Assembly (NCBI GenBank): GCA_036275695.1
Contig: DASUDI010000021.1
Coordinates: 5,311 to 69,310 of the forward strand
Direction of reading: 5' to 3'
Origin: Minisyncoccota bacterium
GTDB taxonomy: Bacteria; Patescibacteriota; Minisyncoccia; Phycocordibacterales; UBA918
DNA length: 64,000 bases
Part shown: piece by piece, positions 34,851 through 64,000 of the stretch
Numbering within the stretch: the stretch's first letter is position 1
How the letters are laid out: each line of letters starts with the position of its first letter
Translations under genes and position numbers: made by a program
The notes under the pieces: model-generated
Seen by the model: the letters and a program-made list of their open reading frames with translations, nothing else
Database searches by the model: none
Told to the model about the DNA's origin: nothing

Positions 34851-34851
34851 C

Positions 34852-34889
34852 AAAAAAATCACTCAGTTATCTGACTGAGTGATTTTTTA
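34852..34889 (+). terminator. rho-independent terminator after tRNA-Ala (AAAAAATCACTCAG…CTGAGTGATTTTTT)
   Basis: 14-bp perfect inverted repeat with a trailing T-run. Confidence 0.6.
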
Positions 34890-34969
34890 GTCTCTAATGA
34901 CATAGTGCGCGAATTGCGCATACGTACCAGTGTGAAAAAAATTCTAATCTGATATACTAGCGCGTATCA

Positions 34970-35040
34970 CAGGCTATAGTATACCGGTAGTACGCGTCCA
35001 TGGGGTGGATGTAGACTGGGTTCAATTCCCAGTAGCCTGA
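34970..35040 (+). tRNA. tRNA-Pro (anticodon GGG); CCA not encoded
   Basis: Hand-folded. Acceptor CAGGCTA/TAGCCTG with C1:G72 and an A73 discriminator, the bacterial tRNA-Pro identity set. D-arm GTAT-ACCGGTA-GTAC. Anticodon stem-loop CGTCC-ATGGGGT-GGATG. T-arm CTGGG-TTCAATT-CCCAG. Confidence 0.65.
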
Positions 35041-35056
35041 CACGCACAAATCGCTG

Positions 35057-41641: not shown

Positions 41642-44424
41642 TATAGGGTAACGTTGTCAATTGGCTTGGGGAGTTTACGATTTGTCGCATACATGCCGAG
41701 AAGCATGAGAACAAGCCCCAGTGAAACTATTGAAATCGAAGCAATGAGTAAGAGCATATTTCCGGTGAGGAATGATGGCGTGAGTTCGCTAAACGAATCA
41801 TTTACAAATGGATTTGTCTGCGCAAACGCTTCAGCGGTCTTTACAAAAGGAAATGCAGCGCTTTTTGCAACAATGGCGCCAGTATTATCGGTAATACCAA
41901 CATAGATCTCATGATCACCATCTTCTATTTCTTTATCAAAAATATAACTCCAACTTCCTTCCGCGTCAGTTTTAACTGAAACTACTATTGGTGTGCTATA
42001 AATATAGAGATTGATAAAACTATGCGGTAATGCCTTGCCGGTGATAAGCGCTTTTGGAGTACCTGTCGCTGAATCTGGATGTATTGTAGAAATTGACGCA
42101 ATTGAAAGAACATCATCACGAACAATTCCTGATTCTTTTGCGGACTCATACGCAAGTAATGACTCCTGTTCTGGATTGTTTGGGTCATATCCACGCGCAA
42201 TTTCTGCACCATCAGAAAAACCATCAGTATCTGTATCGGCAACAAATGGATTTGTTTTATATAAATTAATTTCATCAAAATCTAGAATACCATCGTTGTC
42301 AGAATCAATATGTGCTCTGTTGGCGAGTCGGTCTGCGATGATGCGCTCATTGTTTTCTGCCGTGTCAAGTACGTTAAAAGTCAATTGAGATACATATGTA
42401 TTGATGGAGTCAATGAGATTCTTATCTAATAAAATCTCTGATAATTTTGAAATTGTGTCAGATTGAAAGGATTCAATTGTACTTTTAAGAGCGCGGGTCG
42501 CGTCAGTGTCATTTGTTCGTATTGCATGAGCGTATTGTGTCACATACTCATTAAGCTTATTTCTATACTCAAGAATTAGATTTTTGACCTCCGTGCTCGT
42601 ATGTGTACCTTCATCTAAGGAACTATTTAATGATTGGGTAAAATCCTCCACAGACTGTATATATGTGACTTTCTTGTCAGACACTGCAACACTCTCAGCA
42701 CCTTCGGCGTCATCTGCATCGTTCGCGGGTGAAACTGATGGTGTACTCTGAGTTGTTTTTGTAAGTTCCGCATCAACTGCTCGGTATTCTTCTATAAGTT
42801 CCTCTTGTTCAGGTGTGTACTCAATTTCAGAAACATTAAATATGCGTATACCGGTTTTATCAGAAGTATATTCTCCATACTCATTCTTAACACGTGCAAA
42901 TAGTATATATTCACCATTTGGTGAATTATTCGTATTCCACGCATATTTCCACGTTGTATCGCTAATTTTAAATGCAGTACCAATAAATATTTCACGTAAT
43001 GAGTTATTGGGTGTGTGATATAACTCAATTTTGCGCGCGAGAGGCGCGAATAACGAAATTTCTACAAAGTTTGAGAGTGGACTTTGCTTTGAAAGTGACA
43101 CACTAACTTGAGGAGTTTTTCCCTCCGTAGCAATAGTGGTTGTGGAAGAAGCAACCACAGCATCTGTAACATTATCTAAAATCTCATCAACGTTGTCTAC
43201 GGTACGAGTCACCTTGTTGCTCTCAATGATATTGTCTTGGTAATACCCTTTTGCGAAAAAGTAATACGTACCGTCATTTAGTGTTTCTGAATTTAATACA
43301 TATCGCCACTCGTCAATACTTTTCTTAATTGCATTACCTATGAGAAATTGCGTACCACTTAATTTATTAAGTGCGTAAATTGTAACCTTAGATGCATCTG
43401 TACTAGATAATAATTTCATAGACACGTCACCGCGTAGTGGAGATGGTTCATCAATGGTGAGACTAACTCGCGTCGATGTAGAAGTGTCGTTATTAGAATC
43501 TGAATCAGAAGGCGCTTGATCAAGAACACTAGCGAGCTCATTGTGAACTGTATACGTCTCGGAAAAACCTTGGTTATATGAACCAAAACTATTAGAAATA
43601 TTTACAGAAATACGATATTCCCCATTAAGGTAGTAATGTGTGTCCCAACTGATTTGCCATTCTAGATCATTTACTTTATGTGCTGTGCCGAGCGGATGAG
43701 TTGTGCTTGTGTCAATGTGCTTAGCATACACGGTAACATTTGTTGCAGAAGGTACCGTAATAATAATGGGTACGATATCATGAAGTGGCACCTGCCCATC
43801 AATTCTAATATTCGCAGAAGGTGTTTCATCAACATCAGTGAGTTCACCCGAATCTTCAGGTGATGACGTTGCTATCAGACTTGCGGTGTTCCTGTATCCA
43901 CGAGCATAATCCTCAATTTCTGAATTGTTATTGATAAAACCAAAGTGGATTGAGGTTAAAAATGCCCCTATGAGTAGGACCACCATCCCCGCGGTGCGGG
44001 AAAACTGTGAAATAGTAATATTCTGAATAACAGGAAATCGAGTGATTGAGGGGATAGAAACCCTAAATTCAGGTCGCTTCATGAGCACCCCTCCTTTCCG
44101 CGACTGACGCTTCTTTTTTGATAATAAGGTGCTGTTATGAAGTTTAGTCTCAACCACTTTCTTCGTGTTATTTGAAATTTTAACAACATGCCTCTTACCT
44201 TCAAGACGTGCGAGTGTTAATTTTTTAGGTAACTCGTTTTGATTAATCTTTGAACGTGAAGTGTGCGTGGGAGTGCGTCTCATTGTTTTTTTGAGACTTT
44301 GTGTCGGTATGACTTTGGAAGTTCGTTTAACTTCTTCACGCGACTTAATGCCGATACGCTTACGTGTCACATGCTTAGCGCTCGCGCTCGAACGAGGGAC
44401 TGCTTTGGGTGCAGGTTTTACCAT
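41641..44424 (-). CDS. hypothetical large cell-surface protein with internal repeats and Asp-rich Ca-binding-like motifs
   Basis: 927 aa. Lys/Arg-rich N-terminal ~115 aa, then a TM/signal anchor (AGMVVLLIGAFLTSIHFGF). Three similar modules (…NGEYRISVNISN…, …DGTYYFFAKGYY…, …NGEYILFARVKN…). DSDNDGILDFDE…DTDTDGFSDGAE (thrombospondin-type-3-like). C-terminal TM anchor plus a basic tail. Confidence 0.55.
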   Translation of the reverse strand: MVKPAPKAVPRSSASAKHVTRKRIGIKSREEVKRTSKVIPTQSLKKTMRRTPTHTSRSKINQNELPKKLTLARLEGKRHVVKISNNTKKVVETKLHNSTLLSKKKRQSRKGGVLMKRPEFRVSIPSITRFPVIQNITISQFSRTAGMVVLLIGAFLTSIHFGFINNNSEIEDYARGYRNTASLIATSSPEDSGELTDVDETPSANIRIDGQVPLHDIVPIIITVPSATNVTVYAKHIDTSTTHPLGTAHKVNDLEWQISWDTHYYLNGEYRISVNISNSFGSYNQGFSETYTVHNELASVLDQAPSDSDSNNDTSTSTRVSLTIDEPSPLRGDVSMKLLSSTDASKVTIYALNKLSGTQFLIGNAIKKSIDEWRYVLNSETLNDGTYYFFAKGYYQDNIIESNKVTRTVDNVDEILDNVTDAVVASSTTTIATEGKTPQVSVSLSKQSPLSNFVEISLFAPLARKIELYHTPNNSLREIFIGTAFKISDTTWKYAWNTNNSPNGEYILFARVKNEYGEYTSDKTGIRIFNVSEIEYTPEQEELIEEYRAVDAELTKTTQSTPSVSPANDADDAEGAESVAVSDKKVTYIQSVEDFTQSLNSSLDEGTHTSTEVKNLILEYRNKLNEYVTQYAHAIRTNDTDATRALKSTIESFQSDTISKLSEILLDKNLIDSINTYVSQLTFNVLDTAENNERIIADRLANRAHIDSDNDGILDFDEINLYKTNPFVADTDTDGFSDGAEIARGYDPNNPEQESLLAYESAKESGIVRDDVLSIASISTIHPDSATGTPKALITGKALPHSFINLYIYSTPIVVSVKTDAEGSWSYIFDKEIEDGDHEIYVGITDNTGAIVAKSAAFPFVKTAEAFAQTNPFVNDSFSELTPSFLTGNMLLLIASISIVSLGLVLMLLGMYATNRKLPKPIDNVTL

Positions 44425-50535: not shown

Positions 50536-50570
50536 ATTTTAATAGTATACTATATATCTATAATCAACAA

Positions 50571-50592
50571 AGGTCAGATATATATCTGACCT
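50571..50592. repeat. 22-nt perfect palindrome AGGTCAGATATATATCTGACCT in a 390-bp intergenic region, candidate operator
   Basis: Read directly. It is centred about 45 nt upstream of the AI-2E transporter start codon. Confidence 0.5.
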
Positions 50593-50923
50593 TGTATGTC
50601 ATGGAATGGGGGTAGGTGCTGGTATCGTAATCTTTGCTGAACGCGCAGTTGCTTCAAGCGCGTTAAATGTGGCTGATATTGCCCTATCTGCTGCATCGAA
50701 ACTCGCACTGAACAGTGACGAAAGATACCAAATGACCAAGATCATTCCTATTGACTTAAACATACATATGTAATTTGCAACTATAACAACACAGGACGAA
50801 TGTGTTGTCTGAATAAAATCAGTAGTCGCGCATATGAAATGATTAAGAACAGTATCCGCATACAGTATAGCATATATGCTATATATGTAAACTACACGGA
50901 GGATGAAGTCATGCGAGATCAGG

Positions 50924-51661
50924 TTAATAAACACACAGTGGCGCCAATCCAAAAAAATGATATATCTGAAAACCAAAGTCACTCATCAATATACTCTGTG
51001 ACGAGAGCAACGATACTCCGAGGACAATAAGGAATACTCCACTGAACTTTGAAAGATATCGTTCATAGCGTGCGTAGCCTGTAAAAGCGTGGACTGACTG
51101 CGCATATAATAAACCTGTCAAAATAAAGGGGACTGCCAAACCCAATGAAAAAGTAAGTAATAATACTCCTCCCTGCATAAGCGTTGCAGACTGTGACGCG
51201 AGGAGAAGGATTGAGGCGAGAATGGGTCCGGCACAGGGAGACCATCCGAGTGCAAATACAACTCCTAGTAACAAAGGGCGAGCAAATCTACCTTTTTCCA
51301 TATGTGGCACGCGAATTCGCTGAAAGGTATTTTTAAGTAGCGGTAGTTCAAAGACTCCAAGTATCGCAAGACCAAACAGTATAATTAACACCGATCCAAC
51401 TTGAGAAAAAATTACTTTGTAATGCTGAGTCCATGATCCAAGATAAGCACTCAATAGACCAAATAGAAAAAAAATAATACTAAAACCAAACGTAAAGGTA
51501 ATGGTACGTATCGTAATCTCACGTCGCTTATTGTGACGCACCGTATCAGGCACCAAGGACGCGAGAAAAGCCGGCACAATGGGAAGTGTGCATGGCGCAA
51601 GAAACATGACGACTCCACCCGCAAACGCACTCACCATGAGTATAAGTGAAAGTTCGTGCAT
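50924..51661 (-). CDS. ccdA: cytochrome c-type biogenesis protein CcdA (DsbD-family transmembrane thiol:disulfide electron transporter)
   Basis: Start taken at MHELSLILMV… Conserved Cys in TM1 (LAPCTLPIVPAF) and TM4 (GWSPCAGPILASI). Confidence 0.75.
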   Translation of the reverse strand: MHELSLILMVSAFAGGVVMFLAPCTLPIVPAFLASLVPDTVRHNKRREITIRTITFTFGFSIIFFLFGLLSAYLGSWTQHYKVIFSQVGSVLIILFGLAILGVFELPLLKNTFQRIRVPHMEKGRFARPLLLGVVFALGWSPCAGPILASILLLASQSATLMQGGVLLLTFSLGLAVPFILTGLLYAQSVHAFTGYARYERYLSKFSGVFLIVLGVSLLSSQSILMSDFGFQIYHFFGLAPLCVY

Positions 51662-51662
51662 A

Positions 51663-52217
51663 CTACTGTGTGAGAGTTTGTAATATACTGGTAAGCTCTG
51701 CTTCGTCGAAAACACCGCGCGCGTGATACACCTTCACGCCATCCTTATCGTACACAAGAGTCTCTGGCATCGCGTAGCCGTTGATTGAAGTATAAAAATG
51801 ATCACTCGGGTCTAAAAGAACGTGAATATCCTCAGATACAGGATACACACTCAGAAATGAACGTACCGTACCGACTTGTTCCATGCGGTTAATGGCGAGA
51901 ACGTATATATCTTGCGCGTACGTGTGTGCCAATCGAGCAAGTATTGGTAGTTCTGTTTGAGAAAATGGTGTCCACGTTGCCCATGAATTAATAATAATAG
52001 GCTTGCCACGAAAATTGTGTAAATTGACGGGATTTCCTGAGAGGTCTGTATACATCTGTCCATCATCTGGCTCAATGACTTTTAGATCATTTTCAAGATC
52101 ACCCAAGTAACCACCTGGTGACACAGACAAAAAGGTAATCATCCCAAGGGCACATACCACAACCATGATGAGAGTAACCTGTTTCCAATATTGCCGCAGA
52201 TGCACTCCCATATACAC
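51663..52217 (-). CDS. TlpA/ResA-like thioredoxin-fold protein lacking the catalytic CxxC (WATWTPF in place of WCxxC)
   Basis: 184 aa. N-terminal TM, then …FRGKPIIINSWATWTPFSQTELPIL…, which aligns to the TlpA active-site region. Both cysteines are absent. Confidence 0.6.
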   Translation of the reverse strand: MYMGVHLRQYWKQVTLIMVVVCALGMITFLSVSPGGYLGDLENDLKVIEPDDGQMYTDLSGNPVNLHNFRGKPIIINSWATWTPFSQTELPILARLAHTYAQDIYVLAINRMEQVGTVRSFLSVYPVSEDIHVLLDPSDHFYTSINGYAMPETLVYDKDGVKVYHARGVFDEAELTSILQTLTQ

Positions 52218-52219
52218 TC

Positions 52220-52702
52220 CTATCCCTTAATGAATAATTCAAAATCCTCAGGAGTCTCACCCTCCATGGGAGGGATAAGATTGAGTTCGACTTCTCTACT
52301 CATAATGAACGCGCGTATTTTTGCTTGCTCACTTGCCTCAAACGACACTAAAAACCTCTGCGGTGTCACTACCTGAGCACATGTTTGTGCGTGATTGACA
52401 ACCTTAAAATCTATCATTACTTGTTCTGGACTCGATTCAAGAATACGCGTATCCCAATTAAGCAAATCACATGGAGTCGGCATTGCTATCTCACCAGCTA
52501 GGGTATGTTTTCCATTAATAAAAAAATGTTTTGCATCAATGCGAATTATATCTCCGTATGGAGAAGTTTCATCAATAACAACAGGAGATGTTTCACTCTT
52601 ATCTTCCTGCATTTCTTGTTTTTTGATGTACGTAAACGTAAACATACCGACGACAATAAGCACTAAAATAGTAGTTGCTATAATTATATTATTTTTACCC
52701 AT
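52220..52702 (-). CDS. hypothetical membrane-anchored protein
   Basis: 160 aa. N-terminal TM, two Cys in the extracytoplasmic domain. It is co-directional with and immediately downstream of the TlpA-like gene. Confidence 0.45.
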   Translation of the reverse strand: MGKNNIIIATTILVLIVVGMFTFTYIKKQEMQEDKSETSPVVIDETSPYGDIIRIDAKHFFINGKHTLAGEIAMPTPCDLLNWDTRILESSPEQVMIDFKVVNHAQTCAQVVTPQRFLVSFEASEQAKIRAFIMSREVELNLIPPMEGETPEDFELFIKG

Positions 52703-52748
52703 ATAACGTTTAACTAGTACTGATAATATTTTTTATTATACCATATAT

Positions 52749-54086
52749 CTACTGAGCACTATTTACGCCTTCAACATACTCCATCCCTTCATCAACGGTG
52801 ATTTGATAGCGGTTATGTTCTTCAGTTGCTTTTGCAATATACATAACGGTGATAATAAAAATTATAATGATGATAAGTAGGGATATGAAAAACTTTTTGT
52901 ACACGCGTACAAAACCTATGATTGTCTCCATAACATCCATTGTCTCGCGAGTCGCGTGCATACGCGCGCGCAAATCAAGTACACCATATCGCAGCGGCGC
53001 GGTGATGTGCGTTTGTGGTACGGAGCGGGTATTGGGTTGTCCTCTCTCCCATAACATACTTCGTGGTGTGGTGTGTAAGTGAACATGACCCTCCTTTGGA
53101 TCTACACCAGCGAGTATGAGCATTCTACGTACATACGCACGCACCATCCACACAAGACTCGAAATAATAAGTGTCAAAATAGACACAACAATAAGCGTCG
53201 CTTTCAGCGGGATAACCCAAAAATATACTGTTGCGGATTCACTCTTTACACCATCAGTCCCGTAGCCAAGGGTAACAATTGCCTTATAGCGACCAATATC
53301 GCTAAGGTTAAAGTCACTACTCCATGTATAATGATATTCACGTATACTTTTCGGCAGTACGTTTCCAAATTGGGTCTGATAATTAACGGGGATCACTCCT
53401 CGTTCGGTACCCCACATATTAGTGATACGTATTTCACCTCGCGGGAGAAGGTGCACGTTGCCTTTATTCTCAAATCGTAGTGAAAATTCTGCCTGTGGTT
53501 TTTCAAGTATGGAATCAGATAGTCGAAATTCACGAATGGAACCTTGCTCGATTACGTCACCTTCGACCCTCAAAAAAAATAATGAGGTGACTGCTTGTGA
53601 TGTCCTGACGAGAGGACCATTTGCAATATTATTTGGTGGTTCGGTACTTATGAGTACTGCTGCATAATGTCCTCCCGGTGACGCATTCTTTGGAATGTCC
53701 ACAATGAACGATATCTCCTGAGTCTGTTCTGGCTGTATCTGGTGTGGCCCAGGGGGAATCTCAACCCACTCCGCAAGTGTTGCGCCATCGGTATCTGGCG
53801 AATCGATAATTTGTGCCTCATCTTTTTTGACGGAAAAAAATTCACCTTGCCCATTTTCGCCCGTTGGTGAAAAATTTACCACTTCTGCATATACCGTCAT
53901 GGGGAATGGGTTGCCGTTTACAACTTTAATAGTACTTTGCCACACATCTCCGGGAAGCGCGGTTATTTGAAAAAGTGGTGGGGTGACACTCAAAATTTGC
54001 GAAGATTGAGCGTTTACCGAAGATGAGCACATGAGCAGAAAAAAAGTGCCAATGATCTGTGTGAATCTAAAAAGTACATTTCTCAT
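52749..54086 (-). CDS. hypothetical cell-surface protein (signal peptide, beta-rich ectodomain, C-terminal TM anchor; DUF916/DUF3324-like organisation)
   Basis: 445 aa. Signal MRNVLFRFTQIIGTFFLLMCSSSVNA. Then …LSVTPPLFQITALPGDVWQSTIKVVNG… C-terminal TM (LKATLIVVSILTLIISSLVWMV) plus a tail. It is a paralogue of the next gene. Confidence 0.5.
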   Translation of the reverse strand: MRNVLFRFTQIIGTFFLLMCSSSVNAQSSQILSVTPPLFQITALPGDVWQSTIKVVNGNPFPMTVYAEVVNFSPTGENGQGEFFSVKKDEAQIIDSPDTDGATLAEWVEIPPGPHQIQPEQTQEISFIVDIPKNASPGGHYAAVLISTEPPNNIANGPLVRTSQAVTSLFFLRVEGDVIEQGSIREFRLSDSILEKPQAEFSLRFENKGNVHLLPRGEIRITNMWGTERGVIPVNYQTQFGNVLPKSIREYHYTWSSDFNLSDIGRYKAIVTLGYGTDGVKSESATVYFWVIPLKATLIVVSILTLIISSLVWMVRAYVRRMLILAGVDPKEGHVHLHTTPRSMLWERGQPNTRSVPQTHITAPLRYGVLDLRARMHATRETMDVMETIIGFVRVYKKFFISLLIIIIIFIITVMYIAKATEEHNRYQITVDEGMEYVEGVNSAQ

Positions 54087-55087
54087 AAGTTGTTACGTGT
54101 TAGATCAATATCATGATGACGTGGGTCGCGTTTCCCTTCACGCACATGAACCATAAGGCGCTCTGAGTCATCCATATCAGTATCATCGAAATAACGTTTA
54201 TGAACATACCACGCGCCAAAAATTACCACAGTAATTAAGCCTGAGAGTAGTATGAGTAAATACTTTATCGGAAAGGCGTAAAAGAAACTTGTGTCTTGGA
54301 CCGTCGCTCGCTGTGTTGAACCGTATTCAACTGATAAAAAAGCCTTGTATTTACCGAAAAGACCGTCACGCGATATCTTGGTTTCGAATACATGCTCACC
54401 ATTGGGAGGAACCTCTACGCGATCCTCATTGACGCGGGCAACCCCCACTTCCTTGCCCTTGCTATCATAAATAATGATTTCTCCTTCAGGAACAAGACTC
54501 TCACTGCTCGGATTGTTAAAGGTGTAGCGGGCTACATTATTAGAATCATTGGTAATGAAGCGATTTACAACAAACCCCGAAAGTTTGAGAAATTCAGTAT
54601 TCTTCTCCTCAATGGTGACATTAATGATCGTTCCTGGTGCCTGACCCTGTGCCACAAGTCGCTCTGCCTCGTCGCGATTATCACCATGACCAAATCCAAT
54701 AAATGCATGATATGTACCTGGTGACGGGGTTGGGTGCACACGGAGTGTAATGGGGATTTTTATTTCATCACCCGGTCGCACGAGGATGCCAAGTCTGCTA
54801 ACTTCAATCCACGACGCAAGTGAGGTGGTACGGTCACTCTCAACTGGTGGCAGGAATTCTTCAATTGTCCCACCATCCTGAATCGAAATGTTGTTGACGG
54901 AGGGATAAAGAGTGGCTGGTTGAGCTCCCGTATTTTTAATAGTAATTTCCTTTTGAATAATATCCCTTCCCTCTGCATCTATATCCATTACCAGTGGCGA
55001 TACCGAAAAGGTGGGCGCCGCGTATGCGACGACAGGTGTCGTGTATAGCGAGAGTGTTATTAAACTTATGATGTAAAAATATCTCAT
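54083..55087 (-). CDS. hypothetical cell-surface protein, paralogue of 52749..54086
   Basis: The start is taken at MRYFYIISLITLSLYTTPVVAYA (signal peptide). Then …FSVSPLVMDIDAEGRDIIQKEITIKNTG… C-terminal TM (IKYLLILLSGLITVVIFGAWYV). Its start abuts the stop of the giant gene. Confidence 0.5.
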   Translation of the reverse strand: MRYFYIISLITLSLYTTPVVAYAAPTFSVSPLVMDIDAEGRDIIQKEITIKNTGAQPATLYPSVNNISIQDGGTIEEFLPPVESDRTTSLASWIEVSRLGILVRPGDEIKIPITLRVHPTPSPGTYHAFIGFGHGDNRDEAERLVAQGQAPGTIINVTIEEKNTEFLKLSGFVVNRFITNDSNNVARYTFNNPSSESLVPEGEIIIYDSKGKEVGVARVNEDRVEVPPNGEHVFETKISRDGLFGKYKAFLSVEYGSTQRATVQDTSFFYAFPIKYLLILLSGLITVVIFGAWYVHKRYFDDTDMDDSERLMVHVREGKRDPRHHDIDLTRNNL

Positions 55088-55088
55088 A

Positions 55089-58000
55089 CTAAAAAACGGG
55101 TACTGAAATGTATCGCATGTGTGCTTCGTATGTTCCCGCATCCTGCATTTGACGTACGAGTAATCTAAATACAACATCAATAAACTCGCCCACCACCGGC
55201 TGTGAACTATACCCCACCTCATCAAGTGTTGTTGTGCTCATACGTGCCCATGTATCGACTGCTGAAAACCGAGTTGAGCCACCATACAGTGTATCATCTG
55301 CAGAGTGGTAACCAAAACAACTGCGAGCACTCGCGTTACACCCTGAAGCCCATGAGGTCGGGGTACCGTTGGTACCTATGACCTGATCGATTTTTTCACC
55401 AAATGATGTGAGCATATCCCCTGAAAGAGTCGTGAAGAGTCGATATCCTGAAGTTCCATTTGTGTCAATGGTGAAACGATGTGCACCTTCAACAAACGTA
55501 TCAACAGGGACTGAACCAAATGGAATTGTGGACGGTGTTGTTGCGATATCAGTAGTGATTCCTTCAATGGTCTGTCCAGAGGATATCCCTGTCATAGTAA
55601 AGACCAGACTTGCGCCCTTGGTCAGAAGACTTGGGTACGTTTCTCCCTGCGCGAGTGGCACGACGCTATTATTAGTCGCGTCATATGCCCTAAAATAATA
55701 CACTCGATTGACGCGTGCGCCACTACTCCTCAATGTAAACGCAAACTCAGTTGCAGCATTTATTTGATGATCAAAGGTGCTTGTAGTGGTGCCACTTTCA
55801 TTATGTGTACCGCATCCGACACCAACTTGTGACACACACGCGCCCACATCAGAAAGTAATTTTGTTTGTATAGACACGTCATCTGCTCCACCCCCGTTCT
55901 CATAGCACCAGTAGGAAAGATTGGTGCATGTACCCATTTCAGATACAAAGGTCGATGTTGCAAATGTAGGTGATTCTGAAAACTGCAGACGAAATCGAAC
56001 ATTAGTCCCCACGGCACCGTTGGATTCTTGGAGCGTAAGACGCAATTGAATAGGATTATTTACATCAATGTCAATGGGAGCCACTGTTTCATTCGCAAGT
56101 GGAGTTGTGGGTGTTTCATTTTCCGCATCATCATACCATCTCCAATTTTTTGATTCTGCACCATATCCCACCGTGCGAATTGTGGGGTAATTATTATACG
56201 CAGTCAGTAGTGTTCCATTTGCTTCAGTCATCCTAAAACAGTATGACGTCCTATCAGCGGCACCATTATTTTGAATTGCCCAGTCATACTCAATATCCTG
56301 ATTGGCATTTGTTTTATATGGTGCGAGCGCGGTATTGTTTTGCTCTTCAAAGGTTCCCGCGACGTCTGAAACAGACAAAAGTAAATCACCACCCGTAGGC
56401 GGGTCTCCTGAAAGTACCGCCCCATCAGTAATCGGAGTTGAGGTACCTCTCCATAATGCGGTAGTACTCCCAATCGCACCCAGATTTTTCCACTCAGTTG
56501 TTTGAATAGCACTACACGTGGTGATTCGTGGTGCGTATTGAAGCTTAAATGCGTCGGTATTCGCAATAAGTGCCGCGGCACTTATTGCGAGTGACATGCG
56601 TAGTCGCAGTGTTCCACCATTAAGTATCGGGGTGTCGAACCCTGTCATCTCCGTATTTTCTCCAAGGTCAGTAGCACCCACTGGCCATGGATCCGTAGGT
56701 TTTAAAGCGTTGTTATTGACATAGAGTCTGTAGTAATTTTGAGATATCTTTCTACGTGCGGTTGGCCACTCAACAACCTCTGTTCTGTAATTTCTTGTGT
56801 CACCCGTATTACTCATCCATATTTCATACTGTGTCGTAGAGATAAGACGAGTCGCAATCATTGGTTCAGGCCACGATGTTCCCGTCCCCGAACTTCTGTT
56901 ATTCATAAAAATTGAAGCGATACCCACGTCATCAAGTGTTTTACCGATATTTATATTTGAAGTAAAGGGAGCCGTACCACCTGACTGCGTGCCATTTGAG
57001 CGGGTGACCACCATCGTGGTGCCCACCGTCTGAAGATTCTCAATAATCCACGCCACTGATACGTGCCCTGTTGGTGTTGTTGCCGCGCCATCTAAAAGAA
57101 ACGACACCTGTCCAACACTTGAAAGCCACACCTCGTGTCCAAAGTTTGCATGCGAATCAAGCCCTGATCCAACACGCTTTTGTGTATGCACAAAAGCTCG
57201 CGTAAGACTTCCGATTGCGGTAATTGATTCAGTTTCAGTACTTCCCGCAGATGAGTAGGTGTGTTCAGCGCGCTGAACTACCCAGTTAGAGCCGGTAAAT
57301 TCTACTACCGCGTAACTTACATACACCGCATCACTCCCCGCTTCACCGCGCGTAAATGTTGCCGTGTCAGCACCCGCGTCCCATGACGCGGTGGAAAGTA
57401 CGGTATTGTAGTCCGCTCGGCCTGAGTCAGGATTGTATTGACCAGTGACGAACACTGCCACATCAGTATCATCAGTGATACCCGCGACAGTATTTGACGT
57501 AAGCGTCGTACCTGTCGTGGTGTACGCGCGCGCTTGCTGCTGTCGCACAATGAATTCATTCTCTCCCCCGGCAGTTCCTTTGTACTCTACAATTTCCCAC
57601 GCAACTCTTGTATCACCCGAAGGAGTACCATTTCTTTGAAAAGTGATACTATTAGTGATATTTGAGGGATTGGTGATATACACCGTAACATCGTTAGCGT
57701 TCTGGTTTCCAGTCGCACCAGAATCTCCTGCGCCCGTACTATGCGTATTGGTAATGCGAATAAATGCCGAGGTCGAGGCACTCGGTGCTACATAGTCAGT
57801 CCCTGCGTTAATGGTAAGTGAGCCACCAGTAATTGTCGAAACACCTCGCTGCACTCGGAAGTCAGTGGGTAATTTAATGGTCACCTCGGGATAGACCGAG
57901 TATGCGGGGAGTGCCGTTCCTGCGTTTGTAAGACGAAAACAATAGGTGGCACCTTCCACTGATGACGCGGTTGCGTTGAGTGAGTACTCGAATTCAACGA

Positions 58001-60560
58001 ATTGAGTTTCTGAGAGAGTAATAGAACCCGTCTGAGATGTTGTTTCTCGCTGTCCTCCATTTGAGGTCACGAAGCTGGCATTTTCGTCATTCATACCTCC
58101 ACTTGATACGGTAATATTTGTGGTGTTATTGCCTTCAACAAGTTGTGACGCGGACATGTCCCACGCACCACCTCCAGTACTCACGTCACTCCACCCTGTT
58201 GCAGCACTACATGTTGAGATTTTTTGCGCAAATTCAAGGCGGTATTGGATACCTTGCGTAGTGGTGCCACCTTCATTTGATACTTGCACACGAAGTCGCT
58301 GTATATCAAGTTGTGCTACTTTGGTAAGTGGCGTATCAGCAGTACCACCCGTAGCCGAAGTCGCGCCAGACTCTGTTCCATCGTTGTTGCGCCAATGATA
58401 GTGTGTTTGCGTAGGTATACTTTTATATAGTCGCGTTACTCCTGGTACAGCAACATTTGTATTAGGTGCCACGTTGGCACCACTTGCATTAATGTGCGTA
58501 TTAGGATTAGTGATTTGTAAATCAAGTGATTGATTATTTGTAGAACTGGCGGTTATATCAAGCATTGTATATATACACGCACTCTGTGTCGAAGAAACGC
58601 TGATTGAGCCGACGAATGTAGATGTTCCTGTGGTCGAAAATCCATCAGTGTCAGTTGTACCATACTGAGATTCAGTCCCTATGTACGACTCACTCGCGCA
58701 ATTATATGGTGCAGAAGTATCATACTCATAGTACAGTTTGATATTATCGAGTCCATATACCACATCAACCGTTCCACTCGCGGTAATGGTTATACCGGAA
58801 ATGGTGTGTGGGCCAGCCGTCTGCGCCTCAATATTAAAACTACCTCCAAGGTATACATTTGAAGTGGTTATATCGATACTTGTGCGCTGTGTTCCAGCAC
58901 TGGTAACCAAGACATCCGCGGTAACAGTTGCTTCTGGGTACACCGAGTAGGTAATCTCTGATGCTGAACCAGCATCAGTAAGCCTAAAACAATAAGTCCC
59001 TCCATCGGTTGCGTTGGTAGTTGGTGAGATTGAATATTCTAATTCCGCAAACTGACTTGATGTAAGCGTGAGTCCACCCACCTGTGATGAAGTGTCCTTC
59101 ACTCCTCCATTAGGAGTGAGAAATGTTGTGTTCTCATTCGTTACTCCTCCCGTTGAAACTACTATATCGGTGGTGTCACTTCCATCGGTAATATTACTTG
59201 AATTAAACATATCCCAATCACCTCCACCCGCACCAACATCAGTCCAGCCGGACGCCGCGGAACACGTAGACACCTTTGATGCGTATTCAATGCGATATTG
59301 TTTTGAGGTCGACGTTTTATTTCCTTCGTTTGATATTTCAAAACGAAGACGTTTTCCCACGAGTTTGCCAATCGCAGAGAGGTGCGTGCTCTCAGTGCCT
59401 CCTGTTGCTGAAGTAGCTCCCGATTCACTTCCGTTATCATTACGCCAATGAAAACGCATTTGTCGCAAATCAACTTTTTGCACCGTACCTGCACCAGAAA
59501 TTGAAAGCGCTGTTGTGGGATCTATGACTGGTGAGCTTGCGGCCACAACATCAATAGACGGATTGGTCATCTGAATATCGATAGTATCACCCGCACCTGC
59601 ACTTGATTGAACATCAGCAACAACATATACGCATAACGCTTTTGTGGTGTTGATATTTATACCTGATGCGGTAAAAACGGATGAGCCGTCAGCACCACTG
59701 AATCCATCCGCATCGGTGGACCCATACTGAGACTCAGTACCCGCATAACTTTCACTTGCGCAGTTATACGGCGATGAGGTATCGTTTTCGTAGAATAATT
59801 TAATATTTTTAAGGTTTGAGGACGCGTCAATAGTACCGTGTTCATATACAGTGATTGAAGTCACATCACGGTTACTCACGGATGAGTTTTCAGTTATTGC
59901 AAAACTCCCACCAAGATGCGCGTTATTCGTTCCCGCATCAATATTTTGCATCGTGCCCTGCGTTGATACAGTGATATTAATTACTGGCGTATAGGTAACA
60001 TACGCGTAGAGTGCGTAGTTGATACAGTTGGTGGCACCTCCCGCACCGGGCTTAGTACAGGTGGTACGAACACGCAACCCGTCAAGATCAGATTGCGTGA
60101 GCGTGAGCCCCGTGAAGTTGACACTTGACCACGTGCTTACGGTACTAATAGTGACATTCTGTGTCGTGCCAATCTGGGTAGTTTCTGCGGCATTCCAAAG
60201 TGAAACCTGGAACTGCATATTTGAACCACCTTCTTTGTGATACAAAAATACGGTCACCGCGGACGCAGTCTGAACATTTGAAATCGTACCCATTTGGTAC
60301 GAATCGAGCTGATTGCGCGTGAATGTAAGATAATCACCTGTTGTACTGGGTGCTGTTGTTGAACTCACACCATCATTAACACAATCATAATTATTCGCAG
60401 TAGCACACGTTGTTCGCGCCCCCTGAGAGGTGTTTCCTGCACCATCAGGGTTTATTTGTTGCCCCAATGCCTCAGTAATAAGTGTATATATAAAAAAACC
60501 ACACAGCACAAATAGAGCAGTTATACCTGCAACGGTGACCATTTCCATGCTCTTACGCAT
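55089..60560 (-). CDS. giant (about 1820-aa) repeat-containing extracellular protein
   Basis: A single uninterrupted ORF. N-terminal signal anchor (MVTVAGITALFVLCGFFIYTLI). Ser/Thr/Gly/Asn-rich. It contains a ~355-aa tandem duplication. A …WR…YCFR[LM]T[DN]AG-type subdomain is repeated at least 4 times. Confidence 0.6.
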   Translation of the reverse strand: MRKSMEMVTVAGITALFVLCGFFIYTLITEALGQQINPDGAGNTSQGARTTCATANNYDCVNDGVSSTTAPSTTGDYLTFTRNQLDSYQMGTISNVQTASAVTVFLYHKEGGSNMQFQVSLWNAAETTQIGTTQNVTISTVSTWSSVNFTGLTLTQSDLDGLRVRTTCTKPGAGGATNCINYALYAYVTYTPVINITVSTQGTMQNIDAGTNNAHLGGSFAITENSSVSNRDVTSITVYEHGTIDASSNLKNIKLFYENDTSSPYNCASESYAGTESQYGSTDADGFSGADGSSVFTASGININTTKALCVYVVADVQSSAGAGDTIDIQMTNPSIDVVAASSPVIDPTTALSISGAGTVQKVDLRQMRFHWRNDNGSESGATSATGGTESTHLSAIGKLVGKRLRFEISNEGNKTSTSKQYRIEYASKVSTCSAASGWTDVGAGGGDWDMFNSSNITDGSDTTDIVVSTGGVTNENTTFLTPNGGVKDTSSQVGGLTLTSSQFAELEYSISPTTNATDGGTYCFRLTDAGSASEITYSVYPEATVTADVLVTSAGTQRTSIDITTSNVYLGGSFNIEAQTAGPHTISGITITASGTVDVVYGLDNIKLYYEYDTSAPYNCASESYIGTESQYGTTDTDGFSTTGTSTFVGSISVSSTQSACIYTMLDITASSTNNQSLDLQITNPNTHINASGANVAPNTNVAVPGVTRLYKSIPTQTHYHWRNNDGTESGATSATGGTADTPLTKVAQLDIQRLRVQVSNEGGTTTQGIQYRLEFAQKISTCSAATGWSDVSTGGGAWDMSASQLVEGNNTTNITVSSGGMNDENASFVTSNGGQRETTSQTGSITLSETQFVEFEYSLNATASSVEGATYCFRLTNAGTALPAYSVYPEVTIKLPTDFRVQRGVSTITGGSLTINAGTDYVAPSASTSAFIRITNTHSTGAGDSGATGNQNANDVTVYITNPSNITNSITFQRNGTPSGDTRVAWEIVEYKGTAGGENEFIVRQQQARAYTTTGTTLTSNTVAGITDDTDVAVFVTGQYNPDSGRADYNTVLSTASWDAGADTATFTRGEAGSDAVYVSYAVVEFTGSNWVVQRAEHTYSSAGSTETESITAIGSLTRAFVHTQKRVGSGLDSHANFGHEVWLSSVGQVSFLLDGAATTPTGHVSVAWIIENLQTVGTTMVVTRSNGTQSGGTAPFTSNINIGKTLDDVGIASIFMNNRSSGTGTSWPEPMIATRLISTTQYEIWMSNTGDTRNYRTEVVEWPTARRKISQNYYRLYVNNNALKPTDPWPVGATDLGENTEMTGFDTPILNGGTLRLRMSLAISAAALIANTDAFKLQYAPRITTCSAIQTTEWKNLGAIGSTTALWRGTSTPITDGAVLSGDPPTGGDLLLSVSDVAGTFEEQNNTALAPYKTNANQDIEYDWAIQNNGAADRTSYCFRMTEANGTLLTAYNNYPTIRTVGYGAESKNWRWYDDAENETPTTPLANETVAPIDIDVNNPIQLRLTLQESNGAVGTNVRFRLQFSESPTFATSTFVSEMGTCTNLSYWCYENGGGADDVSIQTKLLSDVGACVSQVGVGCGTHNESGTTTSTFDHQINAATEFAFTLRSSGARVNRVYYFRAYDATNNSVVPLAQGETYPSLLTKGASLVFTMTGISSGQTIEGITTDIATTPSTIPFGSVPVDTFVEGAHRFTIDTNGTSGYRLFTTLSGDMLTSFGEKIDQVIGTNGTPTSWASGCNASARSCFGYHSADDTLYGGSTRFSAVDTWARMSTTTLDEVGYSSQPVVGEFIDVVFRLLVRQMQDAGTYEAHMRYISVPVF
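57878..59993. repeat. intragenic tandem duplication, two copies of about 1.06 kb, inside the giant surface-protein gene
   Basis: The protein blocks …NNAHLGGSFAITENSS…YCFRLTDAGSASEITYSVYPEATV and …SNVYLGGSFNIEAQTA…YCFRLTNAGTALPAYSVYPEVTI are collinear, about 355 aa apart. Two similar antisense ORFs end about 1.05 kb apart (58398 and 59451). Confidence 0.7.
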
Positions 60561-60622
60561 ACATAAATACCTCCGAATATATCGGATACCTCTATTATGA
60601 AGCAAAACACCAGAAATGCGAC

Positions 60623-62344
60623 CTACTGTTGTGGGTTTGAAGTTGTTGCAGCATCATCTAGCGGTTCAATGTACGGTGTAATGATCAGATCATACGGAGT
60701 ACTTTCATCATGGATAGGTAACGTTGAGGATGACTGGGTAGACATACTAATATCATAGGAAGTATTTTGATACTGACCAACAGTTGTTGTCGCACCCAGA
60801 AGTAGAGATGTGTCATCATCAGTAATGGGAACATACGGAGTAACGACAATATCAGATTCAGATATATCAATATTGCTATCATTTGTTGAATCATCAGGTG
60901 AACCGTCACCCTCTACTGTGGATTGCTTCTCCTTTAATTGTGGCGTCTGAGAGACGAGCGCGCGCTTTTGACCAGTTTGCTCAGGATCAGGGATTTCATC
61001 AGGAAGAGAGACAGGTTTTGCGCCAAGCTCTATATTTTCACCACTACCGAGATCGTAACCACGAATTAACACATCGCCCGACTCTGATTTTGAGTCATAT
61101 ACAAGTACGAAACGGGGATTTTCAATGGTGCCACCGTCATTACCCTCGATTGTCTCAGTGTGCTTTGTGCGAATATCATACACTTTCATTACCCACACAT
61201 CATGCTCGAATGACTGCCACACAACATGGGTACCATTAATTTGTGGGGAAATATCGTGCACTACATTGTCAGTAAGCATATATGGCTCGTCTGTGCCATG
61301 CATCATAAATATCTCCCAATCATTACCTATCCACCCCTGCCAAACAGTTATTTCACCAAAACGTGAGGGGTGCATATTATTATATCTATCGAACGTAATT
61401 TGTTGTTCGTCTGTGTGCTCAATGTCATAAATCATAATTTGGTATCGGCCATCTATAAGTCTATGCCATGTAATAGTATTAGTTGATTCATCAAAATATG
61501 GCGCATCATCATCAAATGTGTTTCGGGTAATCTGTGTAATATCTCCGCCCTTCTCAATGAAGATTTCGAGATCACCATCCTCATCAGGAGCAGAATAAAC
61601 TCTATCCGTATACACAATCTCAGATTCCTCTTTTTGTTTTACACAATAATACGTGCCATCATCCATGGTTGCGCACTCTGATTGAGCAAAAGACAATCTA
61701 TTCTCGTCGTTTGTTACTGTATTAATAAGTGGTTGCGCCGGCTCAGTATATGCAGCAGCATCGGAGACATCAGTGTCACTGTGTACCTCATGTAATGGAG
61801 TCGAGCCCCCCTCGTCAACCACGCTTGAAACTTCTGGAAAAACACTGTCTTCATTTGCTACGAGCGGAGGCGCGTCTCCACTACCATTATTAAAGGATAA
61901 GATATCTTCATTCTCAGAGCTTTGATCTTCACGCGAGTTATCAGAAACACCATGCTCAGGTGATTGATCAAAATTCTCATCTACCTCAATGAGACCAGCG
62001 TGGTTATTGTCTACATTATTATCCGCCTCAGTCATAATTACAGGGACACTATTCTCTGGTTCTAACTGTGAAGTTGTAGTGTCCACATCTACACTCGGCA
62101 CAACTGGTGGTACTGGCGAAGCGTCAAATGTACTTTCCATTTGCTCACCAACATTTGCTTCATGTACGGTTTCCGTATCCGTTGGCGAGGACAGTGTTTC
62201 TAACGCAACTTCATCCGCAAAAACAGGCGCAAGGGGAAGTGCCACAAGAAGTGACATAACAACAAAAGCACACAGTACCCACGCGTAGTAAGTTATGTAA
62301 TGACGTTTACGTATTTGAGTAATGTTATATGTGCTCCACATCAT
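60623..62344 (-). CDS. hypothetical acidic secreted protein with propeller-like W-containing repeats
   Basis: Likely start MMWSTYN… with a signal anchor (YYAWVLCAFVVMSLLVALPLAPVFA). Long D/E/S-rich linker. Repeated …ITWHRLIDGRYQIMIYD… / …ITVWQGWIGNDWEIFMMH… / …VVWQSFEHDVWVMKVYD… units. Confidence 0.5.
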   Translation of the reverse strand: MMWSTYNITQIRKRHYITYYAWVLCAFVVMSLLVALPLAPVFADEVALETLSSPTDTETVHEANVGEQMESTFDASPVPPVVPSVDVDTTTSQLEPENSVPVIMTEADNNVDNNHAGLIEVDENFDQSPEHGVSDNSREDQSSENEDILSFNNGSGDAPPLVANEDSVFPEVSSVVDEGGSTPLHEVHSDTDVSDAAAYTEPAQPLINTVTNDENRLSFAQSECATMDDGTYYCVKQKEESEIVYTDRVYSAPDEDGDLEIFIEKGGDITQITRNTFDDDAPYFDESTNTITWHRLIDGRYQIMIYDIEHTDEQQITFDRYNNMHPSRFGEITVWQGWIGNDWEIFMMHGTDEPYMLTDNVVHDISPQINGTHVVWQSFEHDVWVMKVYDIRTKHTETIEGNDGGTIENPRFVLVYDSKSESGDVLIRGYDLGSGENIELGAKPVSLPDEIPDPEQTGQKRALVSQTPQLKEKQSTVEGDGSPDDSTNDSNIDISESDIVVTPYVPITDDDTSLLLGATTTVGQYQNTSYDISMSTQSSSTLPIHDESTPYDLIITPYIEPLDDAATTSNPQQ

Positions 62345-62437
62345 AGCAAAACATGCGCGCATATTTAACCCAATGCACCCATATTCATCTATAATAGCAA
62401 CTATTTGCAATGATGAGTGACAGTGTTATCAACAGTG

Positions 62438-63181
62438 CTAATGATAAAATGACTCTGCGAGAAGTATTGAAAAATCAATAAATGTCATCCTTCCATCGTT
62501 ATTGAAATCAAAAGTAAATTTGCGCGAAATCCACGCAGCCATAAACTTCGACACATCATCCATATCCACATCATTATCGTTGTCTACATCAGTAACTACG
62601 TTGATTTGTGCCTCCGCGGTAAGCACACCATCTGAACCCGTTATGGCGAGTGAGACAATGCCCACGCCATCATTAGTCGCATTGACTGAGGTGCCATTTC
62701 CATCACCCGCAATGAGTTTGGTACTTTGCAGTATAATGCGTGCATCACCAGATTTGACCGCGTGAGCACGAATTCGCGCGACCTGGTGATTGCCTACAAA
62801 ACCCTTTCTGAAGGTACCGCCCTGCATATAAATTTTTCCATTTTCAGCGTATGGATTTTTATTCCATAAGGATATGACAGAAGTGCCCACATCTATACTA
62901 TCAATAACAAGAAATTCCTCTGGATACGTAAGTATAATATCGACTGCGTTAATGGGGACGTGTGCGGAAATGGTGACGTCTACATAAAATTGCTGATCCT
63001 GAGTCACCTTGTCGTCTGAAACTTGTAAGGAAATATATGAAGAGTTTTGAGTAGTTACTGCCGCGAGACCCGCGAAGATGGTGGTCAAAAATACAAATGA
63101 AAACGCGTATCGAACCGTGGTGTGGTGCTTTGCTTGATAATTGGGATAAAATAATTTAATGAAAAAACGTAACATACACAA
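62438..63181 (-). CDS. cohesin-domain plus C-terminal dockerin-like module protein
   Basis: Cohesin-like beta-sandwich segment (…FYVDVTISAHVPINAVDIILTYPEEFLVIDSIDVG…). Two dockerin-type Ca-binding repeats at the C-terminus (DVDNDNDVDMDDVSKFMAAW and DFNNDGRMTFIDFSILL). Confidence 0.55.
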   Translation of the reverse strand: MCMLRFFIKLFYPNYQAKHHTTVRYAFSFVFLTTIFAGLAAVTTQNSSYISLQVSDDKVTQDQQFYVDVTISAHVPINAVDIILTYPEEFLVIDSIDVGTSVISLWNKNPYAENGKIYMQGGTFRKGFVGNHQVARIRAHAVKSGDARIILQSTKLIAGDGNGTSVNATNDGVGIVSLAITGSDGVLTAEAQINVVTDVDNDNDVDMDDVSKFMAAWISRKFTFDFNNDGRMTFIDFSILLAESFYH

Positions 63182-63841
63182 TTACGGTACCAGCGTAGAC
63201 CTCAACGCGTCAATTTGGTGATTACTTACATCAAGTGACTCACTCACATTCTTTGCGTACGCAACGAGTGAAGCAACTTCTGAACTTTGAGCTGACGCAC
63301 CAGAAATAAGATGGGTGATGATGTCTTGTTGTATATCTGCAAGTTCTACAAGGAGACTGCTCCGCCCTTGTTCAAGGGTAACTAAGTTGGAAAATGCTTC
63401 GCTCACCGCATGATACTCCCCTACGTCTTTGAGTAGCGAGAGAATTGTAATATTTTCTTTAAGACGATCCACCGACTGTTCCAATCGTGTCACCATAAGT
63501 GCCTTTCGCTCACCATAAAAATTACCACAACTTTCAAACAAGCTTTGCATAGTGACCAATTCAGGTTTAGTAAGTGATGCGAGTCGTATAAGATATGACT
63601 CATACTCCTCTCGTCTCCCACAGTCTGCGATAATCTGCTCAGTTACTTCGTCTGCGCCATTTCTATCAGTAATTTCGGCGAGTGCTACCACATCAGCTAC
63701 GTTTTGAGAAATACTGTTTTCCAGGTATGTGACCACATGTTTTTTTTGATACGCACTAAAACCCGCACCGATACAAAGTGCGAGCGCACATATTCCTAAT
63801 GCGCGGGCGACTTTCAGATGTTGCAATAGTGATGCTTTCAT
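63182..63841 (-). CDS. hypothetical membrane-anchored helical protein
   Basis: 219 aa with an N-terminal TM (ALGICALALCIGAGFSAY). The rest is alpha-helical and low-complexity. Confidence 0.45.
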   Translation of the reverse strand: MKASLLQHLKVARALGICALALCIGAGFSAYQKKHVVTYLENSISQNVADVVALAEITDRNGADEVTEQIIADCGRREEYESYLIRLASLTKPELVTMQSLFESCGNFYGERKALMVTRLEQSVDRLKENITILSLLKDVGEYHAVSEAFSNLVTLEQGRSSLLVELADIQQDIITHLISGASAQSSEVASLVAYAKNVSESLDVSNHQIDALRSTLVP

Positions 63842-63850
63842 AAATATATT

Positions 63851-64000
63851 TTACGTGACGATATGTTCAACATCATCAATTTCTTTTGCGATATGTTCTT
63901 GCGCCCTAGTAATATCAGCACGGATTTCGTCTATGAGCGCGGATTCAGACTTAGTCAATTTACCTTTTCGTGAAATTGTGAGCGCCTCTACATTTTTATC
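63851..64000 (-). CDS. C-terminal fragment of an unidentified coiled-coil protein, running off the window
   Basis: The reverse complement gives an open frame …DKNVEALTISRKGKLTKSESALIDEIRADITRAQEHIAKEIDDVEHIVT* with the stop at 63851..63853. It is absent from the ORF track because it is incomplete. Confidence 0.3.
   Translation of the reverse strand, partial: DKNVEALTISRKGKLTKSESALIDEIRADITRAQEHIAKEIDDVEHIVT

Follow-up and report, generated by a model that had tools for sequence, protein, structure and literature searches.

The 64-kb window analysed here, a stretch of contig DASUDI010000021.1 from a Minisyncoccota bacterium, contains between positions 52220 and 63841 seven minus-strand open reading frames (ORFs), numbered G1 to G7 by position and placed exactly where the initial annotation of this DNA had put them. 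The locus is a core, vertically inherited envelope cluster of the class Paceibacteria (Parcubacteria), which belongs to the Candidate Phyla Radiation (CPR, or Patescibacteria). Its invariant triad consists of the gene for a giant secreted protein, G4, followed by those for two paralogous proteins, G3 and G2. Judged from sequence, G2 and G3 are shown to be remote homologues of the WxLIP/DUF916 proteins of Firmicute WxL clusters, and the cluster is a good candidate for a system that builds the outer face of these cells or attaches them to partners.

Paceibacteria are the largest class of the CPR and almost none of them has been cultivated; to our knowledge, no account exists of how they build their envelope or contact partners beyond type IV pili. 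The proteins of the cluster have no curated family models despite forming more than 1000 sequence clusters, and one component can now be traced to a relative with a solved structure (WxLIP, 9i1y). The cluster therefore offers a testable handle: its set of about ten genes is defined, G3/G2 and a conserved module at the C-terminus of G4 (termed G4C) are predicted to pair as anchor and ligand, and a cohesin-dockerin pairing is predicted as well. Rather than a categorically new machine, the evidence so far describes an envelope system that is widespread, unmodelled and open to testing. As to its function, we lean towards a non-covalent surface-display complex in which the WxLIP-like proteins G3 and G2 would hold G4 through G4C.

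The paralogous membrane proteins G3 and G2

G3 comprises a signal peptide, two immunoglobulin-like (Ig-like) domains, a single transmembrane segment (TM; 277-295) and a short cytoplasmic tail that ends in a conserved HDIDL. G2 likewise has a signal peptide and two Ig-like domains, which are followed by TM1 (297-315), a cytoplasmic loop, TM2 (399-417) and a short tail outside the cell. TMs were taken from a hydropathy scan. In both proteins and their orthologues, AxA-like sites close the N-terminal hydrophobic segment. The initial annotation had proposed that the two are paralogues with one C-terminal TM each; the paralogy is borne out by BLASTP (E 1e-17, 25% identity over 310 amino acids (aa)), and the topology is right for G3 and wrong for G2. 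WxLIP proteins are by definition 320-380 aa long and combine DUF916 and DUF3324 with a signal peptide and a single TM helix (PMC10599100). G3, with 334 aa and one C-terminal TM, lies within this length and architecture. G2 departs from it: at 445 aa it is longer, and it has a second TM and a cytoplasmic loop that is conserved.

The G2 loop measures about 80 aa (residues 316-398, window ~52893-53141) and contains the near-invariant motifs YVRRMLxLAGV and SAPIRxGVLDLR, a degree of conservation that hints at a cytoplasmic partner or signal. In roughly half of the G2 orthologues, which measure 535-590 aa, the C-terminal ~100 aa hold a LytR_C domain (PF13399) that lies after the second TM, outside the cell (for example P0110, P0113, P0118-P0120 and many loci such as L025-L076); G2 of the window lacks this domain. 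In three further proteins (P0261, P0264 and P0323), a single ORF encodes a G3-like and then a G2-like module, either as natural fusions or as frameshift artefacts at the 4-nt overlap of the two genes.

The kinship with DUF916/DUF3324 proteins of WxL clusters, which the initial annotation had suggested from motifs and topology, withstood comparison by Pfam, tblastn and hhalign, although the homology is remote. Sub-threshold matches to the Pfam model WxLIP_PGBD (PF06030, formerly DUF916) occur in 22 of 32 G2 homologues, the best at 6e-5, and in 21 of 33 G3 orthologues, where the best reaches 1e-5; the third paralogues present in some loci score 23.5-24.3 bits against it. With a third paralogue as the query, tblastn against 7.3 Gb of plasmids returned annotated DUF916 genes of Paenibacillus, Streptomyces, Clavibacter, Arthrobacter and Cellulosimicrobium as well as unannotated Deinococcus genes (E 9e-7 to 5e-3, 46-69% of the query covered; for the first four genera, E 2e-6 to 5e-3 and 46-62%). 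The locus found in Paenibacillus urinalis is a textbook WxL cluster, in which a DUF916 protein is accompanied by two WxL proteins, one small and one large with its WxL domain at the C-terminus. In hhalign, this DUF916 protein aligns with the G2 family at E 1.5e-6 (probability 90%, 180 columns) and with the G3 family at E 2e-5 (probability 77%, 203 columns), and both alignments extend into the second domain. These comparisons extend the WxLIP family far outside the Firmicutes. Sequence searches of the PDB with profiles of G2, G3, G4C, G5 and G1 gave nothing significant.

One of the Deinococcus plasmids deserves separate mention (L091, 5848-11533). Its unannotated DUF916-like gene is followed by genes for a 181-aa protein and a 1090-aa CarboxypepD_reg-like protein, a layout that resembles WxL clusters outside the Firmicutes, with no WxL annotated there.

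G4 and its predicted tethering

G4 opens with a TM (25-43) and a variable N-terminal part of about 200 aa, continues through modules in the order A-B-A-B, a unique central region of 360 aa and two further B modules, and closes with a C-terminal domain. The duplicated A and B modules are 43-54% identical and the two additional B modules are more diverged, in agreement with the repeat giant that had been described from the sequence. The protein is acidic and rich in Thr (14.5%), Ser and Gly, contains 22 cysteines, and has no Pfam, NCBIfam or PHROG match. A prophage or tail-fibre origin was considered and rejected, since PHROG matches are lacking and synteny is kept in 80 species. The initial annotation had also called G4 adhesin-like, but a variable repeat protein of that kind it is not: G4 is conserved and colinear with its orthologues in dozens of species over about 1600 residues (query ~210-1838). 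Many of these orthologues have lengths of 2047-2066 aa, and what varies is an N-terminal stretch of 200-850 residues.

Such constancy of length (~2050 aa) and of the order of domains across dozens of species is as expected for a structural protein and not for an adhesin specific to one host. G4 might accordingly form a surface-layer (S-layer)-like or sheath lattice, to which G3/G2, G1 and G7 would contribute anchors and cohesin-dockerin pairs cross-links. Such an envelope layer would suit the acidic, Thr/Ser/Gly-rich composition of G4 and the class-wide occurrence of the cluster, but we consider it unlikely. Many cysteines are unusual for S-layer proteins, whereas G4 has 22, with conserved pairs among them. 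In addition, some lineages have a G4 reduced to 440 aa, which is hard to square with a lattice subunit, and Pfam and NCBIfam scans of the seven proteins found no SLH, CWB2 or other known S-layer domain.

The best-conserved part of G4 is G4C, its last ~360-395 residues, which consists of one B-type β-sandwich and a terminal domain of about 180 aa, with three conserved Cys pairs. Its extreme C-terminus is invariant in the family as YIxVPVF (YISVPVF in the window). In several lineages, G4C occurs alone behind a signal peptide, as a protein of 437-446 aa. An AlphaFold2 model of G4C (predicted local distance difference test score 86.4) has two β-sandwich domains, and Foldseek matched it in the PDB to generic tandem-Ig proteins only, at TM-scores of no more than 0.28. 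A single Pacebacteria metagenome-assembled genome (P0123; L005/L006/L011, 7499-8986) encodes a 495-aa protein in which an N-terminal Peptidase_S24 domain (61.7 bits) is fused to the G4C module. A dedicated SipW-type signal peptidase was rejected as its explanation, for the Peptidase_S24 part is UmuD/LexA-like and cytoplasmic; the protein, seen once, is probably a chimera or rearrangement.

All seven proteins lack an LPxTG-like motif ([LIV]Px[TSA]G), and G4 has no C-terminal TM either, so that a non-covalent anchor is needed. In large WxL proteins the anchoring domain is always C-terminal (PMC9772566), an arrangement mirrored by the C-terminal, stand-alone-capable module of G4, and we count this likeness in favour of tethering. 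WxLIP has been proposed to stabilise WxL proteins on the wall, and AlphaFold2 predicts its DUF916 hairpin to be inserted into the WxL domain (PMC10599100). In the surface-display complex that we favour, G3 and G2 would be fixed in the membrane with two Ig-like domains each outside, and would bind the C-terminal module of G4 non-covalently, probably by β-strand insertion. The stalk of G4, which is conserved, would then project outward together with the N-terminal end, which varies between lineages, in the style of a fibrillar adhesin, and the complex may have a role in partner attachment. Accessory parts would be the membrane-anchored cohesin/dockerin proteins (G6 and the product of gene 8, which lies upstream of G7), the repeat protein G5 and the small anchored proteins G7 and G1, and a neighbouring redoxin/CcdA pair would service the conserved disulfides of the ectodomains. 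If the predicted pairing is right, WxLIP-type anchors can pair with a partner that is not recognisable as a WxL domain.

Several observations weigh against this proposal. All Pfam DUF916 matches fall under the gathering score (best 24.3 vs 27.3 bits), DUF3324 (WxLIP_HBD) never matched the G2 or G3 families in Pfam, and the G2 loop is without a counterpart in Firmicute WxLIP proteins. The presumed WxLIP ligand is absent or unrecognisable in the cluster: the Pfam WxL model found nothing in G1-G7 and, even at E<=10, nothing among 38 orthologues of G4C, and hhalign of G4C against the Paenibacillus WxL protein and a 4-sequence WxL alignment gave probabilities below 1%. A host-specific adhesin would not usually show colinear conservation of the kind seen in G4. 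Finally, gene order is frozen well beyond the cluster, and synteny alone is therefore weak evidence for a functional unit. The Firmicute WxLIP motif NQIDKxxxYFDLK is not present in G2 or G3.

The C-terminal domain of G4 had been suspected to be a WxL domain because of its GYRL and AGTY motifs, a candidate that was abandoned after the searches above; tblastn of the domain against the plasmids returned no WxL protein, and HMM (hidden Markov model) searches of six DUF916 loci gave no link from the G4 module to their partner proteins. Two resemblances may be recorded as observations. An AGTY followed by exactly 12 C-terminal residues, with an aromatic residue at +6, is common to G4 (1823-1838, window 55092-55139) and Paenibacillus WxL domains (L087, 8577-8624 and 11739-11786); profile comparison finds no homology, and the likeness is an anecdote. 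In the terminal domain of G4, 111 residues separate the two aromatic motifs, close to the ~106 reported for small WxL domains.

Strand insertion is also the basis of a different proposal, donor-strand fibre assembly. Here G3 and G2 would serve as membrane-anchored chaperones or platforms of the PapD type, and G4 or its 440-aa form would polymerise, or be capped, by strand exchange involving the Ig-like domain at its C-terminus, giving a monoderm cell a pilus-like appendage. G4 orthologues do have a conserved short strand right after the signal peptide, and the short forms have repeated TSxNF strands. The G2 fold is chaperone-like, the matches of G4C are pilin-like, and the hairpin insertion modelled for WxLIP and WxL (PMC10599100) points in the same direction. 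We nevertheless give this proposal a small chance, for a usher-like or sortase-like partner is absent and a subunit of 1838 aa is unlike known strand-exchange pilins. A wider version, which we rate as similarly doubtful, describes a strand-complementation system for anchoring and assembly in monoderm CPR bacteria: membrane-anchored WxLIP-like proteins, as structural cousins of pilus chaperones, would complete or cap the terminal Ig-like domain of the giant or short subunit, giving filamentous or pilus-like structures for partner contact whose base cohesin-dockerin pairs would fix. If this were true, Firmicute WxL clusters and the CPR system would be two branches of one ancient surface-display mechanism of Gram-positive type.

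Conservation, gene order and accessory genes

The cluster was found in every related genome examined. Clustered at 90%, the homologues of G2 number more than 1100. Identity lies at 50-68% for each of the best 120, and the organism names include Kaiserbacteria, Pacebacteria, Paceibacterota and Minisyncoccia. A G2 profile searched against 1.84 billion cluster representatives (50% identity) returned 1011 at E<=1e-30, and relaxing the limit to E<=1e-10 and then E<=1e-3 raised the number to 4423 and 8661. A scan with one genome per species confirmed 352 encoding stretches, and the best 80, each from another species genome, were analysed; they bear names such as Kaiserbacteria, Nomurabacteria, Jorgensenbacteria, Paceibacteria and similar. 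Many other stretches are titled 'uncultured Candidatus Saccharibacteria', which we take as a placeholder, and a few with titles of unrelated phyla look mis-binned.

Recurrence of the arrangement in related genomes, on which the initial annotation had set store, is evident throughout these loci. G3 and G2 are adjacent in 80 of 80, and G4, G3 and G2 stand together in 76 of the 77 with room for all three. G5 adjoins G4 in 52 of 58 loci, G6 adjoins G5 in essentially all loci with room, and G1 adjoins G2 in 58 of 78, with a third G2-like paralogue in the place of G1 in nine others. A redoxin gene lies near the cluster in 68 of 73 loci, distant ones included, and CcdA was detected in about ten related loci. 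G7 is detectable in about ten relatives and is always upstream of G6.

The flanking order of AI-2E transporter, PGA_cap, FKBP, TGT and UvrB is the same in most loci as in the window. The earlier description of the region as an island was dropped for this reason, together with its unremarkable GC content and skew; the flanks are syntenic across the class. The extent of this order raises another explanation, in which unrelated envelope proteins without a common function are neighbours merely through frozen gene order in small genomes. The order does run on through unrelated housekeeping genes in most relatives, and the whole window is co-directional. However, in the most distant loci (L066, L068, L072, L077, L078, L080 and L083-L086) the housekeeping synteny is gone, while a G4-type protein with G4C, G3, G2 and a third paralogue are retained, together with, in most of these loci, a protein of ~590 aa with Cohesin or Dockerin above cut-off and, in several, the redoxin. 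The close spacing of the genes and the analogous Firmicute arrangement, which joins WxLIP to a large protein with a C-terminal anchoring domain, likewise argue against chance neighbourhood, and we regard this explanation as quite improbable.

The cluster is the middle of a packed run of at least ten genes, from a truncated cohesin gene to the redoxin/CcdA pair (Table 1). Both boundaries of the seven-gene unit first proposed were therefore misplaced. Spacing within G1-G7 is -4 to 46 nt; G3 and G2 overlap by 4 nt (54083/54086), G4 ends at 55089 beside the G3 start at 55087, and G7 and G6 abut. The G3 start is the ATG at 55087, the mechanical ORF extending to 55225. No gap from gene 8 through CcdA exceeds 46 nt, and there are two overlaps; the redoxin gene begins 2 nt downstream of G1, and the CcdA gene overlaps it. 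The first sizeable gap, of 388 nt, follows CcdA and contains a terminator-like hairpin that is probably the 3′ end of the packed run.

Table 1. Coordinates of the cluster and its immediate neighbours in the window.
Feature	Position	Strand	Description
Terminator-like hairpin	50570-50593	minus	10-bp stem; best of the region; consensus match only
CcdA	50924-51715	minus	CcdA/DsbD-type transmembrane electron carrier; DsbD_TM 77.8 bits
Redoxin	51663-52217	minus	Membrane-anchored, TlpA/ResA-like thiol-disulfide oxidoreductase
G1	52220-52702	minus	160 aa; N-terminal TM and highly conserved ~110-aa domain
G2	52749-54086	minus	445 aa; WxLIP-like paralogue
G3	54083-55087	minus	334 aa counted from ATG; WxLIP-like
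G4	55089-60605	minus	1838 aa; secreted β-rich giant
G4C	55092-56276	minus	Conserved C-terminal module; last 395 aa of G4
G5	60623-62410	minus	595 aa; acidic repeat protein
G6	62438-63181	minus	247 aa; cohesin-like domain and dockerin
G7	63182-63841	minus	219 aa; N-terminal TM, probably helical ectodomain
Gene 8, 3′ end	63851-64000	minus	49 codons and stop; truncated by the window end

The initial annotation had suggested one operon. Its short gaps and overlaps are real, but in the cluster region promoter-like sites occur no more often than by chance, and terminator-like sites exceed chance by only about 2 standard deviations; the single-operon idea thus draws its support from the short gaps, and operon structure is not demonstrated. 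Co-directionality is uninformative because nearly all long ORFs of the window (at least 150 aa) are on the minus strand. A reading of all seven products as extracytoplasmic fits the one N-terminal hydrophobic segment that each of G1-G7 has in the hydropathy scan. Against the curated models of Pfam and NCBIfam, all seven stay below cut-off.

In G6, an N-terminal TM precedes a cohesin-like β domain, and the dockerin at the C-terminus has two Ca-binding repeats, of the DxDxDG type and invariant in the alignment of orthologues. Its description as a cohesin-plus-dockerin protein holds at the family level, as Dockerin_1 matches 26 of 26 orthologues (best 2e-7) and Cohesin matches seven of the 26 (best 2.5e-5, sub-threshold); the window copy is itself sub-threshold (Dockerin 14.6 vs 22.9 bits cut-off). 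Dockerins of the related ~590-aa proteins score 27-29 bits, and a sequence profile of G6 found generic EF-hand/dockerin matches only in the PDB. The frame-0 translation of the truncated gene 8 agrees with the C-terminal end of its counterpart in L003, a related 1.03-Mb contig, where that gene also lies upstream of G7. Full-length orthologues are membrane proteins of ~585 aa that combine Cohesin and Big_13 domains with a C-terminal TM and a coiled tail in the cytoplasm; that of L032 scores above cut-off for both Cohesin (39.2 bits, cut-off 24.1) and Big_13 (34.2 bits), and those of L003 and L004 are annotated PF00963.

The presence of cohesin and dockerin modules in G6, gene 8 and the related ~590-aa proteins might call to mind a cellulosome-like, polysaccharide-degrading complex built by cohesin-dockerin pairing. 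However, neither the seven proteins nor their orthologues contain glycoside hydrolase, carbohydrate-binding or other enzyme domains, and the cluster encodes no dockerin-bearing enzyme; such a complex is very improbable.

G5 has an isoelectric point of 4.05, an N-terminal TM or signal and a low-complexity acidic region, and probably starts at M17 (62362). The acidic protein with repeats that had been noticed at first sight is confirmed by a blade HMM, which finds 3-4 tandem repeats of ~40 aa in each orthologue. A TolB-like or PD40 propeller would be expected to have six or more ~40-aa blades, and PD40 matches one of 30 orthologues. The NCBIfam matches to beta_prop_Msarc (E 0.0013) and TolB (0.0039) are weak and far below their cut-offs, and no Pfam or PDB relative was found.

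G1 is among the best-conserved proteins of the set, with a mean column identity of 61% and two invariant Cys, and has no family or PDB relative. G7 also has two invariant Cys, in its ectodomain, and no family match. The product of the redoxin gene matches Redoxin at 46.9 bits and AhpC-TSA at 44 bits. A membrane-anchored redoxin with a CcdA-type carrier is the standard Gram-positive arrangement for extracytoplasmic thiol-disulfide exchange, as in ResA/CcdA-type systems. The conserved Cys pairs of G1, G4C and G7 beside Redoxin and DsbD_TM neighbours fit an extracytoplasmic location, and adjacency and conservation suggest that the redoxin/CcdA pair may be linked to these ectodomains.

Elsewhere in the window, the search for RNA genes found just two, for tRNA-Ala and tRNA-Pro, both at 34777-35041 on the plus strand. 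Downstream of UvrB, 41641-44424 encodes a 927-aa protein with TSP3_bac and Big_13; a Big_13 protein of ~900 aa occupies the matching place in many relatives, and is a further conserved surface protein of the neighbourhood.

Comparison with known surface systems

The combination of families had been put forward as not previously described, and full-text literature searches joining DUF916/WxL or cohesin/dockerin with Patescibacteria found no description of the cluster. An essential dockerin-domain envelope protein has been reported in a Saccharibacterium (PMC10633639), and may or may not be related.

Among non-cellulosomal cohesin-dockerin modules, the likeness lies in a dockerin with two Ca-binding repeats and a cohesin-type β domain on side-by-side membrane-anchored proteins. 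The cluster differs in having no dockerin-bearing enzymes and in the carriage of both modules on one small protein, G6.

Chaperone-usher systems and other donor-strand fibres (PapD/FimC; TasA, CupE, Csu, TLP-1) share with the cluster the two-domain Ig-like fold of G2, which resembles periplasmic chaperones, and strand-exchange subunits are the best, though weak, structural matches of the G4 terminal module. Chaperone-usher systems combine a PapD-like chaperone, an outer-membrane usher and strand-exchange pilins, and this set was not found here: the cell is monoderm and lacks an usher, the 'chaperone' is anchored in the membrane, the subunit is of giant size, and no sequence homology was found. 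Gram-positive fibrillar adhesins resemble G4 in their variable N-terminal end, stalk of repeated β-sandwiches and C-terminal attachment module, the last of these predicted for G4. Unlike them, G4 lacks a sortase signal as well as any Pfam domain known from stalks or adhesion, and its stalk is colinear across species.

The nearest comparison is with the WxL/Csc clusters, such as Csc of Lactiplantibacillus plantarum and the WxL loci of Enterococcus faecium. These encode a homologue of G2/G3, a membrane protein made up of a signal peptide, two Ig-like domains and a TM, and its gene adjoins that of a large secreted multi-domain protein with a conserved C-terminal anchoring domain, a role that is predicted in the Paceibacteria cluster. 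In both, all products appear to be extracytoplasmic and none is an enzyme. By definition, a WxL cluster encodes two or more proteins that carry a WxL domain (PF13731) at the C-terminus, whereas the Paceibacteria cluster has no detectable WxL domain, no small WxL protein and no LPxTG protein; it is not a WxL cluster in the defined sense. It also has two or three WxLIP paralogues instead of one, and its G2 adds a conserved cytoplasmic loop and a second TM. Cohesin/dockerin proteins, G5, G7, G1 and redoxin/CcdA are extras, and a single core locus takes the place of several accessory loci. More than 91% of known WxL sequences are from Firmicutes (PMC9772566), and the host here belongs to the CPR. 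In sum, the cluster is partly homologous to the Firmicute WxL/Csc clusters and may work alike, and it departs from them in its predicted ligand module, the number of paralogues, the G2 loop, the accessory genes and the core status of the locus in a CPR class.

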